Shown here: positions 31,477 through 43,380 of the stretch, in pieces
Position numbering within the stretch: the first letter of the stretch is position 1
How the letters are laid out: the number at the start of each line of letters is the position of its first letter
IMG/VR virus record: IMGVR_UViG_3300025158_000005
Source of the DNA: a virus
DNA length: 64,000 nt
Reading direction: 5' to 3' (one strand)
Translations under genes and position numbers: made by a program
The notes under the pieces: model-generated
The model's input: the letters and a program-made list of their open reading frames with translations, nothing else
What the model was told of the DNA's origin: nothing
The model's database searches: none

Positions 31477-31552
31477 GGGACTGTAGCTCAGAGGAAGCAG
31501 CAGGGTGCTCATAACGCCAAGGTCGAGGTATCGTAATCCTCCAGTCCCACCA
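31477..31552 (+). tRNA. tRNA with CAU anticodon (Met or lysidine-Ile2)
   Basis: Acceptor stem gggactg/cagtccc + A + encoded CCA; D arm gct/agc; anticodon loop ctCATaa; T arm gagg/cctc with an atypical ATCG loop. Confidence 0.85.
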
Positions 31553-31570
31553 TTTTATCATGAGGAAGTT

Positions 31571-32527
31571 ATGTCAGAAGTAACAAGCAATCCCAATGAA
31601 TTTGTCTGGGTTCAGAAATATAGACCAAAATCGATCGATGAATGTATTCTTCCCGAAGAACTAAAAACCACGTTCAAAGGTATCGCACAAAGTAATCGAA
31701 TACCAACGATGTTGTTGTCTGGTAACGCTGGTGTTGGAAAGACAACGGTAGCCATTGCTCTATGTGAAACAGTTGGTGCTGATTGGCTTCTTGTCAACGG
31801 TTCTATCGATAACGGCATTGATGTTCTACGTACTAGGATTGCATCGTTCGCCTCGACCATGTCATTTTATGACGCAAAAAAAGTGGTTATTCTTGACGAG
31901 GCGGATTACCTAAACGCAAATTCTGTTCAACCCGCATTGCGTGGATTCATTGAGGAATTTTCGAAAAACTGCACGTTCATTTTCACCTGCAACTATCGCA
32001 ATCGAATCATTGAACCCTTGCAATCTCGTTGCGCCGTGTATGAGTTCAAAATTCCAAACTCCGAGAAGCCGAAGCTAGCCACACAATTCATGAAGCGCGT
32101 TTCGTTGATTCTGGACATGGAGAACATCGAATATGACAAGCGAGTTGTGGCAGAACTTATCCAGAAGCATTTTCCAGATTACCGTCGTGTATTGAATGAA
32201 CTACAACGGTATAGTTCGTCCGGAAAGATTGATACGGGCATTCTCGTCAACTTGTCGGAAGACAATCTGAACAAGTTGGTGACTGCGTTGAAGGAACGTA
32301 AATTCAGGGATGTTCGACACTGGGTAGCACACAATCTAGATGTTGATAGCGTGAAATTATTCTCAGACCTTTATTCTAAGGTGTCCGAACAGATGGAGCC
32401 GAAAGCTGTTCCTGATCTTGTGACGATTCTTGCGAAGTATCAGTTCCAAGCAGCATTTGTCGCTGATCAAGAAATCAACTCAGTGGCAGCATTGACGGAA
32501 ATTATGATGACGTGTAGTTGGAAATGA
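31571..32527 (+). CDS. gp44: Clamp loader subunit gp44
   Basis: WVQKYRP, G.AGVGKTT, ILDEAD and SRC motifs. Confidence 0.96.
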   Translation: MSEVTSNPNEFVWVQKYRPKSIDECILPEELKTTFKGIAQSNRIPTMLLSGNAGVGKTTVAIALCETVGADWLLVNGSIDNGIDVLRTRIASFASTMSFYDAKKVVILDEADYLNANSVQPALRGFIEEFSKNCTFIFTCNYRNRIIEPLQSRCAVYEFKIPNSEKPKLATQFMKRVSLILDMENIEYDKRVVAELIQKHFPDYRRVLNELQRYSSSGKIDTGILVNLSEDNLNKLVTALKERKFRDVRHWVAHNLDVDSVKLFSDLYSKVSEQMEPKAVPDLVTILAKYQFQAAFVADQEINSVAALTEIMMTCSWK

Positions 32528-32898
32528 AAACGTTCGACATAAAAAACGCGATTGATAGTAAGACTAAGATCGAATGGGACGAAGAAACCAAACGAGAGTA
32601 TCTTCCATTCCTAATGAATCGTGCATTCAGTTATAATCTACATACGATATTTCACGCAAATGAAATGAACTTGAATGCCGCAATTGAAAAGAAATGGCAA
32701 TTAGATTTTTATTATCATTCTATTCCAAAAGGTAAGAGATACGATAATTGGGCAAAAGTAAAATCTAATGATGATATAGCAGCAATCATGGAATATTACT
32801 ACATAAATAATGACAGAGCCGTGGAGTATTCGCGGTTTCTGACACCTTCGCAGATGATAGTTATCCGTGAAAATTTAGAACGTGGTGGTAGAAAGTGA
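32524..32898 (+). CDS. gp62: Clamp loader subunit gp62
   Basis: Y.PFLMNRAFS..ANEMN, K.KR...W.K and GG C-terminus. Confidence 0.9.
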   Translation: MKTFDIKNAIDSKTKIEWDEETKREYLPFLMNRAFSYNLHTIFHANEMNLNAAIEKKWQLDFYYHSIPKGKRYDNWAKVKSNDDIAAIMEYYYINNDRAVEYSRFLTPSQMIVIRENLERGGRK

Positions 32899-32904
32899 TA
32901 TTTT

Positions 32905-33288
32905 ATGATAGAAACATTAGTAGAAGTCCGACTGGATGATCCTGAGGCATTTCTAAAGATCAAGGAAACGTTGACACGAATCGGTATTCCTTCATTCAAA
33001 GATAAAAAGTTGTATCAGAGTTGTCATATATTGCATAAACGCGGGAAGTATTTTATCACCCATTTCAAAGAATTATTTGCATTAGATGGTAAACAATCGT
33101 CGTTGAGTGAAGAAGATATTGAGCGTAGAAATATGATCATCAATCTTTTGGAAGAATGGGGATTATTGTTCATCGTTGATCCGAAAAAGACTGAAAAGGA
33201 ATCTGCATTGAGTTCAATTAAGATTGTTTCTTATAAGGACAAGCATAATTGGGAATTGTGTAGTAAATATACCATTGGTAATAAATGA
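32905..33288 (+). CDS. regA: Translational repressor RegA
   Basis: FLKIKETLTRIGI, LYQSCHILHKRGKY.I.HFKELF and KYTIG motifs. Confidence 0.97.
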   Translation: MIETLVEVRLDDPEAFLKIKETLTRIGIPSFKDKKLYQSCHILHKRGKYFITHFKELFALDGKQSSLSEEDIERRNMIINLLEEWGLLFIVDPKKTEKESALSSIKIVSYKDKHNWELCSKYTIGNK

Positions 33289-33717: not shown

Positions 33718-33815
33718 TGGATTGTTTCTTCTTTGTGTTTGTATTGATTTTTTGTGGTCGCACTGATCGCCTATGCTGAGTTTAAATTTTTTGGATGGAT
33801 TTGACGAGAAATAAC

Positions 33816-34583
33816 ATGGAACATATCAAGTTTCCTTCTATTGGGCAATTTCGTAATGTAATCAAGGAAGTGCGGTTCTTTCATAAGAACGAGACTTTGC
33901 CTACCTTGAAGTTTCGTGGTACGGTTAAGTTACACGGTACTAACGCGGCCGTTGCTAGGGTTAGCGGTGAACAGTGGTTTCAGTCTCGTTCCAACATTAT
34001 CAAGGCGGAAGGTCCTGACAATGCTGGCTTTGCATTCTGGGCAGACGGTATTGACTGGAATCAATTCTTTAACCAGATTCCCGCTAACGAATGTGTAATC
34101 TTCGGCGAGTGGTGCGGTGGTAACATTCAGTCTGGAGTTGCTATCAACGGGCTGCCTAAGATGTTTGTTATCTTCAAGATTCTGGCGGATGGCGTATGGT
34201 TGAACATGGACCAATACTCTTTCATTCAACGTCCTGACTTGAACATTTACAACATCAACAATTTCCCTATGTGGGAAATTGATATTGACTTCAACGTTCC
34301 TGCTCCTGCTCAAAACAAGTTGAACGAGATTACTGAAGCAGTCGAAAACGAGTGTCCTGTTGGTAAGGCATTCGGCAAGATCGGCATCGGCGAAGGTGTC
34401 GTATGGACGTGTGTTACTCCGGGATACAACTCGCCCAGTTTAGTGTTCAAGGTGAAGGGCGAACGTCATGTTGGAGGAACATGGATAGAGGGTATTGATT
34501 TGCCAAGTGAGGACAGACAAAAGGTAATAAATTTTTGTCTTGCCAATAAAATCAATGAATTTGATTTTGAGTTTTTGGAATAA
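33816..34583 (+). CDS. RNA ligase (Rnl2-like), N-terminal adenylation half
   Basis: Nucleotidyltransferase motifs KLHGTNA, FGEW, FVIF, EGVVW and FKVK, followed by a 37-aa non-ligase tail. Confidence 0.85.
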   Translation: MEHIKFPSIGQFRNVIKEVRFFHKNETLPTLKFRGTVKLHGTNAAVARVSGEQWFQSRSNIIKAEGPDNAGFAFWADGIDWNQFFNQIPANECVIFGEWCGGNIQSGVAINGLPKMFVIFKILADGVWLNMDQYSFIQRPDLNIYNINNFPMWEIDIDFNVPAPAQNKLNEITEAVENECPVGKAFGKIGIGEGVVWTCVTPGYNSPSLVFKVKGERHVGGTWIEGIDLPSEDRQKVINFCLANKINEFDFEFLE

Positions 34584-35322
34584 ACGAAAATCCATCAACT
34601 TCATTCTTACAGTATTTTATTATCAAATATCTGGATAACTTGTCAACATTCTTATCACTATTAGAAGCATCGTTTGGGGTGTAAAAACTCCCAAATGGTG
34701 TTTTGTAGATGCCATCAGAGATTGATCTTTTGTGATTTGATATATGTTCCTGTGTCTTGGGTCTTGGAATATTTAACCACCTATTTCGTAAGTCAGTCAT
34801 ACCACTTTCAGTAAAGAACGACTTAAAATCAACACCTTTCATTCTGTCAGATTGATTTTGTTTGAATGTTTTTCCTTCCTCCGTAAGAAGAAATACTTTC
34901 CATTTATCTTTTGCTCTGTCCTTTATCGTCTGATTATGCATTGGGTTGTTTATAGTCATAGATAGTATGTTTGCCATTCTAGCAGATTCATATATTCTAG
35001 AATTGTAATATACATCGTTATGTGTTTTACTTCTATCGCGCATTCTACTGAATGCTTTTAACATGGACGATTTGTGTTTTATATTAGTAAATACCTTGGA
35101 TAGTATCCAATGTGCTATAAAATGTTCTCTATGGGTTAGCTTTATCACGTTCCATGGATGTTCTTTTATGTTTGAAAACTGAGGAAACATATATTTACTT
35201 TTAGGACATATGTGATGATTGTCCCCTTTAATAGAGTCTTTATTTCTGCTTTCGATAAATCTTATATATCTGGATAGATAGTGTTGATTGTGAGGTAATG
35301 TTTCTAAAATAGACTTGTACAT
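34552..35322 (-). mobile_element. HNH homing endonuclease (MobE-like) inserted antisense into the RNA ligase
   Basis: HHICPK...NVIKLTHREHFIAHWIL; own RBS aggag and TATAAACA on the minus strand. Confidence 0.85.
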
Positions 35323-35343
35323 AATTGTCTCCTATGATATTAT
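35315..35343 (+). promoter_or_regulatory. Putative promoter for the ligase C-half
   Basis: TTGTAC-N17-TATTAT, back-to-back with the HNH start. Confidence 0.5.
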
Positions 35344-35374
35344 GTTTATACAAATTTTTAAGGTTAAAAGAGAA

Positions 35375-35767
35375 ATGCTTAAAATTATTTCAAACGGTAA
35401 AGAGTACGAAGTTGATGTGAATCATGTTAAGAACTCTGCAAAATCTGGTAATGCTAAAATCCATGGAAAATCCAAGGTCAAGACTCTTGCTGCTGTTGAT
35501 ACCGAGAAGGTTGCATCTATTCAGGAATTCATTGAAAACGTGGTTACCGAGTCACGTCTAAATCAAGGTATTGACTACCTGAAGGAACAGAATCAACCGT
35601 TGAATCAAACTTCTACTGGCATCTTCTTGAAGTGGATCGTCGGTGACGTAATCAAGGAAGAATCTGACACTATGCGTGACTCTTTGATTGAGCCGAAGGA
35701 TGTAAACGGCTCAATTTCTAAGAAGGCACGTGAATGGTACTTTTCTCAAGTATTCACTTGGCAATAA
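35375..35767 (+). CDS. RNA ligase C-terminal half with a 30-aa N-terminal extension
   Basis: SKVKTLAAVD.EK...F...VT..RL.QG..F.KW...DV.KEE continues the ligase after motif V. Confidence 0.8.
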   Translation: MLKIISNGKEYEVDVNHVKNSAKSGNAKIHGKSKVKTLAAVDTEKVASIQEFIENVVTESRLNQGIDYLKEQNQPLNQTSTGIFLKWIVGDVIKEESDTMRDSLIEPKDVNGSISKKAREWYFSQVFTWQ

Positions 35768-36153: not shown

Positions 36154-36346
36154 CGAACGAATTAATCCCTTTACCGGGGAAAAGAATGTGCTCGAACTTC
36201 CGATAACGGAAGAACACCTCTTAGCGCGGGAAAATGACGCGCTAATTCAACGAGCTATGCCGAATCTAACTACAGATGAACGTGAATTTATCATGACTGG
36301 AATTCCTCCAGGTAAGTGGGAAGAAATTCTTGGGGACGAAGGATGA
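36146..36346 (+). CDS. Conserved phage hypothetical protein
   Basis: TG....L.IT.E.....LIQ.AMPNL..DEREFIMTGI motif. Confidence 0.7.
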   Translation: MLIERINPFTGEKNVLELPITEEHLLARENDALIQRAMPNLTTDEREFIMTGIPPGKWEEILGDEG

Positions 36347-37611
36347 ACATTCTTGAAATTCTAAACGAGATTGGGGCAAATCCTTCCCGTCTTGCGAAGG
36401 AAGCAATTCTCACGCGAGAAAAAGATAATGAATTGTTGAAGGCTGTTATCGTCGCCGCATATCACCCCTATATCAATTACTGGATCAAGAAGATTCCCGA
36501 AGCAATACAAGGAATCTCAACAAATATTAGTTTGAGACTAGCCCTTGATGGACTGGAATATTTGTCGGCTCGACGTGTTACTGGTAACGCTGCAATTGAA
36601 TACCTGGCCAAGATGCTCGGCAGCATGAATCGTGAAGATGCCATCGTTATTGAACGAATTATTGACCGTGATCTTCGTGCAGGATTCACTGATGGTACAG
36701 CTAACAAAATATGGCCAGGGCTGATTCCAACTTTCGATGTGATGCTATCTCATAAGGATATCTCTGGTATCAAGTATCCTGCATACGCTCAAACAAAGAT
36801 GGATGGTGCCCGATGCCACGTTTATTTCGATGGCACTAGTGCTCGGGCATGGTCGCGCCAAGGCAAGGAATTCGTGTTGCATGGTGCTCTTGATGAATCT
36901 GCAAAAGGCCTGATGCTCCCTGGAGAAACCTTCGATGGTGAATTGTTATTCTTCAAAAATAATAAACCTCTCGATCGTAAGACCAGCAACGGTTTAGCTA
37001 ATAAATCGATTAAAGGAACACTTTCAGCCGAGGCATGTGATGACGTTCGTTTCGTTGTTTGGGATAACGTCGATTTCACTTCTTCTTTGCCTTATACAAA
37101 ACGGTTTGATATGTTGAATGACAGATTCAACATTGTGTTTAACCAACAACTCAACTCGCGTTTTCTGCTTGTTCATTCTATCGTTGTCAATTCTGAAGAT
37201 GAAGCATTCAAGTTTTATAATGATCAACGTGCCAATGGTGAAGAAGGCGCGATTCTGAAAAACATGAATTCAGTATGGCAGCCGAAACGCACCAAAGACC
37301 TTGGTAAGATGAAAGCCATTGAAGAAGCAGACCTGCTGGTTACTGGTTGGAAAGAAGGAAAAGGTAAGTTCGCTGGAATGGTCGGTTCTCTTGATTGTCA
37401 AACTGCTGAAGGTATTATTAAGGTTAACGTATCAGGATTTTCTGATGATGTTCGTAAGATCGCATATACTTTTGTTGATAAGATCATCACTGTTCTATAT
37501 AACGAGATAATTAAAGATAAGACAACAGGAGAGTATAGTCTGTTTCTTCCTCGGTTCGTTGAAGTTCGATTTGACAAGACAAAGGCAAACAAATTTGAGG
37601 ATTTGAAATAA
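36343..37611 (+). CDS. gp30: ATP-dependent DNA ligase gp30
   Basis: KMDGAR, FDGEL, EGAILK, KMK and LFLPRF..R.DK motifs. Confidence 0.95.
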   Translation: MNILEILNEIGANPSRLAKEAILTREKDNELLKAVIVAAYHPYINYWIKKIPEAIQGISTNISLRLALDGLEYLSARRVTGNAAIEYLAKMLGSMNREDAIVIERIIDRDLRAGFTDGTANKIWPGLIPTFDVMLSHKDISGIKYPAYAQTKMDGARCHVYFDGTSARAWSRQGKEFVLHGALDESAKGLMLPGETFDGELLFFKNNKPLDRKTSNGLANKSIKGTLSAEACDDVRFVVWDNVDFTSSLPYTKRFDMLNDRFNIVFNQQLNSRFLLVHSIVVNSEDEAFKFYNDQRANGEEGAILKNMNSVWQPKRTKDLGKMKAIEEADLLVTGWKEGKGKFAGMVGSLDCQTAEGIIKVNVSGFSDDVRKIAYTFVDKIITVLYNEIIKDKTTGEYSLFLPRFVEVRFDKTKANKFEDLK

Positions 37612-41314: not shown

Positions 41315-42283
41315 ATGAACTTACTAGAACGCATGACGAAAGCGGGAAATATCGCAGCAGGAACACTATCAACGTCTGTCCTATTCAATGACAAGGACAT
41401 GATCCCAACCGAAATACCCATCATGAACATTGCCCTTGCGGGAAAACTAGATGGAGGTCTAGTTCCTGGTCTAACGGTAATCGCCGGTCCATCAAAACAC
41501 TTCAAGTCTCTCATGTCTTTGATTATGGTTAAAGCTTATATGAAAAAGTATGAAGATGCAATCTGTTTATTTTATGACTCTGAATTTGGTATTACGCCCG
41601 AGTATATCAAAGCACAAGGTATTGACGCAGATCGTGTTTTGCATATCCCCGTTGAACATATCGAACAACTGAAGTTTGACTTGGCTCAACGGCTGGAAGA
41701 AATCAAGCGCAACGACCACGTTATCATCTTCATTGATTCCGTCGGAAATCTTGCATCCAAGAAGGAAGTAGAAGACGCGAAGAATGAAAATTCTGCTGCT
41801 GACATGACACGTGCAAAAGCCATGAAGTCATTGTTCCGTATCGTGACTCCACATCTGACGACCCGTGATATTCCATGTATTGTGGTAAATCATACATATC
41901 AAACACAAGAAATGTATTCTAAGACTGTTGTAAGTGGGGGTTGTATGGTTGCTGACACAAAAATCCACACACTACAAGGTCTAAAAGCTATTCAAGATAT
42001 TGCAAGAGGTGATATTGTATCAACTCTTGAAGGCGAAAAGATGGTTACTCACACCTGGAATCCAGATACTCTTGAAGACGGCGAACCTGAGTGTTATGAA
42101 ATAGAATTTGAAGATGGTTATGTCTGTACTGTTTCTGAAACCCATCCATTTTTAACTAAATCTGGGTGGATAACTGCAGATCAACTAACAGTTGGAAGTG
42201 AAGTGTCAAAAGTAATAAATACCTGTATCAATAATAACGAACAGGTATTTATTAATGAACATAGTCTATCTAATACAATTTAA
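41315..42283 (+). CDS. uvsX: UvsX recombinase N-extein + split intein N-part
   Basis: GPSKHFKS, YDSEFG and DSVGNLASKKE; at SGG|C the intein block A CMVADTKI and block B SETHPF begin (41942). Confidence 0.93.
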   Translation: MNLLERMTKAGNIAAGTLSTSVLFNDKDMIPTEIPIMNIALAGKLDGGLVPGLTVIAGPSKHFKSLMSLIMVKAYMKKYEDAICLFYDSEFGITPEYIKAQGIDADRVLHIPVEHIEQLKFDLAQRLEEIKRNDHVIIFIDSVGNLASKKEVEDAKNENSAADMTRAKAMKSLFRIVTPHLTTRDIPCIVVNHTYQTQEMYSKTVVSGGCMVADTKIHTLQGLKAIQDIARGDIVSTLEGEKMVTHTWNPDTLEDGEPECYEIEFEDGYVCTVSETHPFLTKSGWITADQLTVGSEVSKVINTCINNNEQVFINEHSLSNTI

Positions 42284-42908
42284 TATAGATACGCTACCAA
42301 ACAAATATATCGGCAGTAAATCTAACTGTAGTGTAGTTAACAATAAAATTTTAAATTCAAGAGGAAAAGAATATTGTGGTTCATCGGCTGATAAAGTATT
42401 CAAACAGTTAGTAGAATCATTAATTCCATATGAAGTTAAAGTTTTAGGTACATTTGAATCATATTCTGATGCGTTGATAGCTGAGAGAGATATTCAGATA
42501 AACTACGATGTAGTTGCTAGTGTAGAATTTTTTAATAAATCTATAGCAACATTTTCATCATTCGCTGATCCCAGTTATGCCACATATAAGCATGTTGTAA
42601 CGGATAAATGTGTTAGATTAAAACGAGATCATCCTAAAGTGTTATCTGGGGAATATGCTGGTGTTTCTAAAGGAACAATCCTATCAGAGGATGAACGAAA
42701 GAAAAGAGGAAGAAGCGGTATAGAAAATGGGTTTTATGGAAAAACACATTCCGCTGAAACCAAATCATTATGCGGAAAGAAAATAGGAGATTCACACCGT
42801 GGTAAACCAAAAACAGATGAACAAAGACGAAAAATGTCCGAAGCAAGAAAATTGTGGTGGATTAATCGTAAAAAGAGTAACGAAAGTCGGCAAACAGAAA
42901 GTGTATGA
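42255..42908 (+). mobile_element. Free-standing GIY-YIG / NUMOD3 homing endonuclease between the intein halves
   Basis: IVY...YIGSK, Y.GSS, FFN; NGFYGKTHS.ETK and KTDEQRRKMSE repeats; late TAAATA at ~42216. Confidence 0.8.
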
Positions 42909-43380
42909 TATTACTGTAGCTGATAACCACCATTATATTCTAGAAAATGGTGTTGTCTGTCACAATACTGGAATTTACTACTCAGCGAATGCCATTTGGA
43001 TCATTGGGCGATCACAAGAAAAAGAAGGTACGGAAGTCGTTGGCTATAACTTTACGATCAATATTGAGAAGTCTAGATACGTTAAGGAAAAGATGAAGTG
43101 CCCGTTTACAGTCACATTTGATGGTGGTATCAATAGGTGGTCTGGTCTAATGGATATTGCTCTCGAAACTGGGCATTGCACGAAACCCAAGAACGGATGG
43201 TATCAACGCCAGGGCGACGAAAAGAACTATCGACTGGCAGACACAAATTGTAAAGAGTTTTGGATTCCAGTCTTGACCGACAAGACTTTCCAGACGGCTG
43301 TTCAGCAAAAGTTTCAACTAGGTACTGCCGCATTGATTCAAGAACATGCAGAGCACGTAGACCATGATGGAGAAGCATAA
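42799..43380 (+). CDS. uvsX: Split intein C-part + UvsX C-extein
   Basis: VYDITV..HHY..NGVVCHN|TGIYYSA, then UvsX EKSRYVKE and GGINRWSGL; AGGAG 9 nt before the GTG start. Confidence 0.9.
   Translation: MVNQKQMNKDEKCPKQENCGGLIVKRVTKVGKQKVYDITVADNHHYILENGVVCHNTGIYYSANAIWIIGRSQEKEGTEVVGYNFTINIEKSRYVKEKMKCPFTVTFDGGINRWSGLMDIALETGHCTKPKNGWYQRQGDEKNYRLADTNCKEFWIPVLTDKTFQTAVQQKFQLGTAALIQEHAEHVDHDGEA

Follow-up and report, generated by a model that had tools for sequence, protein, structure and literature searches.

In phage Aeh1, the nrdA gene is divided into nrdA-a and nrdA-b by mobE, and the tails derived from the insertion were found experimentally to be essential for the activity of the split NrdA (Crona et al. 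2011, PMC3045599; Friedrich 2007). The tails are oppositely charged; Crona et al. proposed that tails supplied by a mobile element may be a general antidote to gene fragmentation, noted that they would be difficult to spot from sequence, and raised the possibility of an origin from a degenerate intein (PMC3045599). A second element of this kind, MobA, is found in the topoisomerase II genes 39 and 60 of T4-type phages, has a length of ~1.1 kb and encodes an HNH protein of 269-279 aa (bioRxiv 10.1101/2022.08.31.505936; PMC11461880). MobA always adds an in-frame C-terminal extension (CTE) of ~44 aa upstream, together with an N-terminal one (NTE) of 44-45 aa downstream, was inserted independently several times at one site, and leaves tails that are kept even after loss of the endonuclease; unpublished further MobE cases with conserved tails are mentioned in the same preprint (bioRxiv 10.1101/2022.08.31.505936). 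Fractured genes combine a split intein with an endonuclease gene that stands free between its two parts (Dassa et al. 2009, PMC2677866). Here, we describe a split RNA ligase gene in IMG/VR record IMGVR_UViG_3300025158_000005, of which a stretch of 64,000 nucleotides was analysed (hereafter the window) and which comes from a T4-like phage. The insert comprises, in this order, a 37-aa tail that ends the N-half of the ligase, an antisense HNH endonuclease gene, a short spacer and a 30-aa leader that begins the C-half, and this cassette is very probably a mobile homing unit.

The principle of such tails is already established, and the ligase cassette is a third, unrelated family with a new target gene and an antisense endonuclease. 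The mechanism proposed in the earlier note on this locus is largely right, but it had been presented as new, a claim that fails, since the Aeh1 tails are essential (PMC3045599) and the CTE and NTE are a fixed part of MobA (bioRxiv 10.1101/2022.08.31.505936). As in Aeh1, the gene of an HNH homing endonuclease interrupts that of an enzyme, which is uninterrupted in relatives, and each half bears a unique, insertion-derived and oppositely charged extension; function is restored in Aeh1, and most likely in the ligase, with neither RNA nor protein splicing. The two systems differ in the target, which is an RNA ligase here and the large subunit of ribonucleotide reductase in Aeh1, in the position of the split, which falls on a linker between domains in the ligase but within the barrel of the active site in Aeh1, and in charge polarity, which is reversed, the tail being acidic and the leader basic in the ligase. 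Moreover, the drawing of the Aeh1 locus gives mobE the orientation of nrdA, with an overlap between mobE and nrdA-b (Figure 1A, PMC3045599), whereas the HNH gene of the ligase cassette is antisense and overlaps the tail. Biochemical proof is available for Aeh1, while the ligase cassette is known from comparative evidence of joint mobility and selection. With regard to MobA, the logic is the same and the dimensions are nearly so. However, the ligase cassette has no translational bypass cassette, its HNH gene is antisense whereas T4 mobA, 39 and 60 are on one strand, and its host gene encodes an RNA ligase instead of a topoisomerase. No sequence similarity was found between the ligase tails and the extensions of T4 gp39 and gp60. 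In fractured genes too, the pieces of the broken gene stay where they were, with an endonuclease gene between them, and short foreign segments on both pieces are thought to meet electrostatically. In contrast, those segments form a complete splicing HINT domain, whereas the ligase extensions together comprise 67 aa and lack every catalytic block.

The split gene encodes an Rnl2-type ATP-dependent RNA ligase, broken exactly between the nucleotidyltransferase domain and the helical C-domain. The N-half matches the Pfam family RNA_ligase (PF09414, E 1.2e-13) and positions 1-233 of the 341-position phrog_548 (E 6e-39), and it has motif I with the lysine of KxxG as well as motifs III, IIIa, IV and V; K-L-H-G-T-N, GEWCG, EGVVW and FKVKG are conserved in the ligase alignments. 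Residues 30-126 of the C-half match phrog_548 positions 237-339, and the C-half also aligns to the C-terminal third of uninterrupted ligases. In 140-160 cultured-phage records, both ligase matches abut on the same His codon; the gene is therefore contiguous elsewhere and interrupted here. The AlphaFold2 model of the N-half has a predicted local distance difference test (pLDDT) score above 90 in the body, and its Foldseek matches are Rnl2, Rnl3 and Rnl5 ligases, with E 1e-7 to 1e-6 to Rnl3, NgrRnl and T4 Rnl2. The helical domain of the C-half shows block-mean pLDDT values of 75-96, mostly 88-96, and its best fold match, which is weak (E 0.86), is the C-domain of T4 Rnl2 in 2HVR.

N-halves of 255-298 aa aligning through the tail, and C-halves sharing the leader, were found by database search. 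The same layout is observed in seven contigs (L001-L007) with differing gene neighbourhoods and again in the IMG/VR loci L008-L013, among which L009-L012 exhibit a much more divergent ligase. The architecture is present in at least nine distinct metagenomic phage loci, with all frames intact in nine, and the ligases that carry it include ones only ~21-37% identical to the window ligase. The dimensions vary little: the antisense open reading frame (ORF) encodes 253-256 aa and reaches 23-38 nt into the tail with its 3' end, the spacer measures 22-64 nt, the tails 37-42 aa and the leaders 30-33 aa, and the whole unit comprises 977-1010 nt.

Between the window and L001, the ligase bodies share 71-72% protein identity with a synonymous divergence (dS) of 1.9-2.7, i.e. 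saturated synonymous sites, whereas tail, HNH protein and leader share 95-97% protein identity with a dS of 0-0.12; the HNH protein is 96% identical to the L001 copy inside a ligase that is 71% identical. At the DNA level, identity jumps from 50-73% in the exons to 97-100%, with sharp borders at ~34443 and ~35482. As the cassette is near-identical inside diverged exons, tail, HNH gene, spacer and leader move as one unit. The composition of the mobile unit proposed in the earlier note is borne out by this block of 97-100% DNA identity and by the recurrence in divergent ligases, and sequence comparison strongly supports that the unit would comprise exactly these four parts. The ~27 nt and ~18 nt of flanking exon included in the near-identical block may be either the homing site or a co-conversion tract. 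At the junction, split alleles read E(R/A)H followed by GKSKV, and uninterrupted alleles read EKH followed by S.SKVK, a pattern that would fit co-conversion or a target altered to resist cutting. Split and whole states are interspersed in a tree built from 9 split and 55 whole ligase alleles; at least 4-5 changes of state are needed, and the well-supported branches by themselves force at least four. The window ligase itself is sister to the uninterrupted P0034, with a support of 96 in the Shimodaira-Hasegawa-like approximate likelihood ratio test (SH-aLRT). Horizontal spread into a conserved target site is thus seen in both the near-identical cassettes within diverged exons and the patchy distribution on the tree.

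The three ORFs of the locus were recovered on the strands and at the coordinates that had been described (Table 1); an alternative ATG upstream, at 33795, would give an N-half of 262 aa. The insert spans 995 nt (34470-35464), and, as previously noted, its removal restores an in-frame ERH-GKSK and CATG is present at both junctions (34467-70 and 35462-65). This repeat is common only to the window and to the near-identical cassette L001, six other cassettes sharing a single G there, and it is therefore not a target-site duplication. A promoter had also been proposed ahead of the C-half. The region contains 9 promoter-like sites against 7.0 +/- 2.5 in shuffled sequences, and the -35/-10 candidate does not rise above chance.

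Table 1. Coordinates of the split RNA ligase, its parts and the inserted cassette in the window.
Feature	Coordinates	Strand	Remarks
RNA ligase N-half ORF	33816-34583	+	255 aa counted from the MEHIKF start
Antisense ORF, HNH homing endonuclease	34552-35322	-	256 aa
RNA ligase C-half ORF	35375-35767	+	130 aa
N-half body: nucleotidyltransferase domain, motifs I to V, up to the His after motif V	33816..34469	+	PF09414, phrog_548 1-233
37-aa C-terminal tail and stop codon, cassette-encoded	34470..34583	+	pI 4.2, predicted strand-helix-strand
Divergent spacer between the HNH gene and the C-half	35323..35374		conserved across cassettes
30-aa N-terminal leader of the C-half, cassette-encoded	35375..35464	+	pI 9.3, predicted beta-hairpin plus strand
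C-half body: all-helical C-terminal domain	35465..35767	+	phrog_548 237-339
Block near-identical to L001: cassette with ~27 nt and ~18 nt of flanking exon	34443..35482		sliding DNA identity

The antisense ORF matches phrog_655, annotated as homing endonuclease (E 2e-22), and phrog_12434 (E 3e-10), and the catalytic residues HH...N...H..AH (H36, H37, N58, H67 and H71) are invariant in eight homologues. Its 3' end overlaps the last 10 codons of the tail by 32 nt. The spacer carries signals on both strands: GGAGA (minus strand) and an AAGG/GAGA-type site (plus strand) would be the ribosome-binding sites of the HNH gene and of the C-half, respectively. A motif resembling a late promoter, the T4-type word TATAAATA, is located on the HNH strand of six of eight cassettes, ~15-25 nt before the HNH start. 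In the window, one substitution and the loss of 1 nt, compared with L001, have degraded this word to TATAAACA, and the whole 64 kb contains TATAAATA just twice. Among the best 80 IMG/VR loci with relatives of the HNH protein, tail and leader are present only where the full-length HNH matches, and loci sharing just the N-terminal HNH domain exhibit neither.

The closest homologue of the HNH protein in a cultured phage is that of Rhizobium phage RHph_I1_18 (L089, MN988519.1 83590-85354), with 35% identity over 97% of the length. There, the HNH gene is free-standing and, as in the cassette, antisense to an RNA ligase 2 gene with overlapping 3' ends (by 8 nt). In contrast to the cassette, the ligase gene is intact, the HNH gene is located downstream of it, between rnl2 and the thymidylate synthase gene, and tails are absent. 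By analogy, this intergenic position beside rnl2 is probably the ancestral one, from which the HNH gene would have entered the ligase. Since the HNH gene of RHph_I1_18 is antisense to the ligase and overlaps it at the 3' end, a convergent arrangement inherited from such a state could explain the antisense orientation in the cassette. The position appears to parallel that of the intergenic mobE between nrdA and nrdB, and mobE is believed to have reached the nrdA gene of Aeh1 by transposition from such a place.

Both extensions are foreign to the ligase, as had been claimed from the sequence of the window. They are absent from uninterrupted ligases, where the 67-aa segment was looked for and was not found, and each is conserved in the split alleles, the tail in all of them. 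The BLAST alignments of some whole ligases ran slightly into the tail. Comparison of the tail and leader profiles with 18 uninterrupted ligases by hhalign gave nothing (probability at most 0.5%), so the extensions are not diverged duplicates of ligase sequence across the break. A tail profile search of 1.84 billion proteins retrieved only C-termini of N-halves of split ligases, together with three long repeat proteins that look spurious and were rejected as carriers of the module; a word search with the leader found only near-identical copies. The look-alikes by ESM Atlas features, BTB/Skp1 clusters for the leader (0.88) and unnamed viral clusters with one Rnl2_C cluster for the tail (0.90-0.91), are at the level of a lead or below and were not retained.

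Codon comparisons indicate that tail and leader are under strong purifying selection. In the lineage of L002, L003, L006 and L007, with saturated synonymous change, the ratio of nonsynonymous to synonymous divergence (omega) is 0.03-0.12 for the tail and 0.16-0.29 for the leader. In the 26 tail codons outside the HNH overlap, the proportion of nonsynonymous differences (pN) is 0.05-0.07 against 0.63-0.85 for synonymous ones (pS). The K-V-I-N motif of the tail is encoded by differing codons among the cassettes, and the constraint therefore acts on the peptide. For the C-domain, omega is 0.06-0.16 in the split alleles, which shows that the C-half is still in use. These values already contradict the view that the split inactivated the gene, with an N-half that is active alone or not at all and a C-half that is decaying along with the extensions. 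The isolated nucleotidyltransferase domain of T4 Rnl2, in work by Ho et al. 2004, is said to keep some of the reaction steps, which makes an autonomous N-half conceivable. Nevertheless, with omega of 0.06-0.16 for the C-half and 0.03-0.29 for tail and leader over saturated dS in several lineages, and with every frame intact in nine distinct loci, such decay is highly improbable.

The same selection bears on the question of whether the 995 nt could be a group I or group II intron that is spliced from the RNA, in which case the extensions would never be part of the enzyme. Group I introns with endonuclease genes are common interruptions of phage genes, and the ~230 nt outside the HNH ORF are roughly the size of an intron core. 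However, none of the five equivalent splice registers within CATG combines a U ahead of the 5' splice site with a G as the last nucleotide of the insert, and the frames of the extensions are open and under purifying selection at the protein level across saturated synonymous divergence. A search of the insert against Rfam, on both strands, gave no family up to E = 1. Contigs from RNA libraries (aquifer and groundwater) run unbroken across both junctions and show no joined form, at a low depth (2-11) and with DNA carry-over possible; these contigs cover parts of the stretch only, and their gaps and relative depths are uninformative. An intron is thus the explanation that we consider extremely unlikely.

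Protein splicing is suggested by the arrangement, which resembles that of fractured genes (PMC2677866); in addition, uvsX of this phage contains a genuine split intein, accompanied by a free-standing endonuclease. According to this explanation, the extensions would be left over from a split intein, and protein trans-splicing or a variant of it would continue to link the halves covalently. The leader begins like many C-inteins (ML-K-I-I), but ends with H, K, V or A followed by Gly at position +1 in eight of the nine cassettes; only in L005 does it end with Asn, followed by Ser. The tail has no nucleophile at position 1, its first residue being Val or Ala in eight cassettes and Leu in L009, no tail exhibits a TxxH block, and most tails are devoid of His. 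With 67 aa in total, the extensions amount to about half a minimal HINT domain, and neither half matches a HINT family of Pfam. No intein was retrieved up to E = 10 when the profiles of tail and leader were run against PDB sequences, and hhalign gave a probability of 0.14% between the extensions and the uvsX C-intein of the window. The resemblance of the leader to the C-terminal parts of split inteins, which had been pointed out previously, is therefore a loose echo that no profile test supports, and trans-splicing of the halves is very unlikely.

The uvsX gene (41315-43380) is broken by a canonical split intein. Its N-half reads VVSGG followed by Cys-Met-Val and contains a SETH block, its C-half reads VVCHN followed by TGIYYSA, and a free-standing endonuclease-like ORF (42255-42908) lies between the halves on the same strand, which makes uvsX a fractured gene as the term is used by Dassa et al. 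2009 (PMC2677866). With the tail cassette of the ligase, a single phage therefore exhibits two different remedies for the insertion of an endonuclease. The tail helix (K-V-I-N-F-C-L-x-N, 34521-34560) resembles the end of the N-intein half of uvsX (K-V-I-N-T-C-I-N-N, 42206-42250; hhalign E 0.003, probability 10%), and the two share the DNA word GTAATAAAT, which is specific to this phage. As the other cassettes use different codons, this resemblance is probably a coincidence.

The suggestion that the two extensions form a docking pair is plausible, on indirect evidence. We regard it as the best reading because the peptides are under selection, are oppositely charged, are predicted with low confidence alone and are weakly predicted to fold together, and we lean towards tail and leader acting by binding each other. 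The isoelectric point (pI) is 4.2-5.6 for the tails and 8.1-9.5 for the leaders in eight of the nine cassettes. When the tail is folded with the N-half only, its mean pLDDT is 43-78 per block and just the helix is formed, and the leader remains below 50 when the C-half is folded alone. For co-folding, segments of 45 aa (tail) and 36 aa (leader) were used. The complex score (ipSAE) is 0.33 against 0.02 for the best control, the pLDDT of the partners is at least 71 against 40-42 in the controls, at least 91% of the contacts agree between runs, and the verdict of the tool is 'weak support'. When this score was calibrated, 58 of 80 solved complexes passed the mark, as did 2 of 110 mismatched pairs; with scores of 0.60 or below, only 7 of these solved complexes passed, along with both of the mismatches.

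Several observations weigh against a homing cassette that carries its own docking pair. The ipSAE of 0.33 falls within the range that the tool rates as more often wrong than right, unless the guess is likely beforehand, and the contact between tail and leader is that of a predicted model of low confidence. The leader of L004 is acidic, the sole exception to opposite charge. In Aeh1, the tails of the split NrdA are unneeded for the binding of the halves and serve only higher-order assembly (PMC3045599); tails that are essential yet dispensable for this binding imply that those of the ligase may be essential without being a simple docking pair. Cassettes with tails that have lost the HNH gene, such as those left by MobA, were not seen among the matches listed in two limited scans, a DNA pattern scan for spacer and leader and a metagenome scan for the tail, all of these matches being known loci; such a cassette would have shown an independent need for the tails. 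Finally, no Pfam HNH model is matched by the antisense ORF.

Some of these points could also be accommodated if tail and leader were selected and functional without binding each other. Each peptide might cap or stabilise that end of its own fragment which the split exposes, contact the globular domain of the other fragment or the RNA substrate, or bind the HNH protein as a maturase-like bridge. The helix of the tail is indeed predicted with moderate confidence even without the leader, and the score of the tail-leader complex is only weak. On the other hand, both peptides gain ~30 pLDDT points only when paired together and not with unrelated control chains, their predicted strands are unformed or of low confidence alone, and the charges are opposite in eight of nine cassettes. 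This alternative is therefore rather unlikely, though less so than those based on splicing or decay.

Taking these results together, we favour, with some reservation, a homing cassette that splits the ligase at the domain linker and brings the remedy in the form of its tail and leader. A homing-endonuclease cassette of ~1 kb would have entered the gene of an Rnl2-type ligase at the linker that joins the nucleotidyltransferase domain to the C-domain. The N-half ends with the in-frame 37-aa acidic tail, the C-half starts with the 30-aa basic leader after the HNH gene and the spacer with its putative ribosome-binding site, and the two halves would be translated separately. Tail and leader would most likely fold together as a small alpha/beta unit, by which the C-domain is kept attached to the catalytic one, and the ligase would keep working without RNA or protein splicing. 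The nucleotidyltransferase domain of T4 Rnl2 alone reportedly self-adenylylates and seals pre-adenylylated nicks, while the C-domain is said to be needed for the adenylylation of RNA; this division of labour makes a tethering role of the tails plausible. Based on the model, the extensions would be required for the assembly or the activity of the split ligase. During mixed infection, the HNH endonuclease most likely cleaves ligase alleles that lack an insert, at the conserved sequence of motif V and the linker, and repair would copy the whole cassette, including the tails, with short co-converted flanks.

Other genes near the locus, and other members of the ligase family, deserve mention. An ATP-dependent DNA ligase gene (431 aa, 36316-37611) is found ~550 nt downstream of the split RNA ligase, and its L001 counterpart is annotated with DNA_ligase_A_M and OB_2 domains. 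Genes for a clamp loader and a RegA-like protein are located at 31505-33288, in keeping with a replication module of the T4 kind. Within the ligase family, short C-fragments are present on contigs of up to 68 kb (P0007, P0009, P0015, P0016, P0024 and P0031). These fragments begin with M-(K/E)-Y-x-I-x-L-x-E-x-G-N-E and resume just before motif IV (GEGIVW), and they may represent a second, different split site with its own leader.

A bolder possibility, which we consider quite unlikely, is that tail and leader constitute an autonomous and portable heterodimerisation mini-domain of ~67 aa, independent of the carrier protein and derived from a decayed split intein that kept its electrostatic capture and folding after losing the chemistry of splicing. 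If true, such a mini-domain would be a missing link between the fractured genes with split inteins and the split genes assembled by tails, and a natural protein 'velcro'. The tail and the leader are, in any case, a compact natural pair of peptides that could be tried as a tag for the assembly of split proteins, and the split ligase is a simple, monomeric, two-domain test system. Above all, the ligase family adds a comparative series of at least nine distinct loci, which is lacking for the singleton Aeh1, and strengthens the generality of the tail mechanism.

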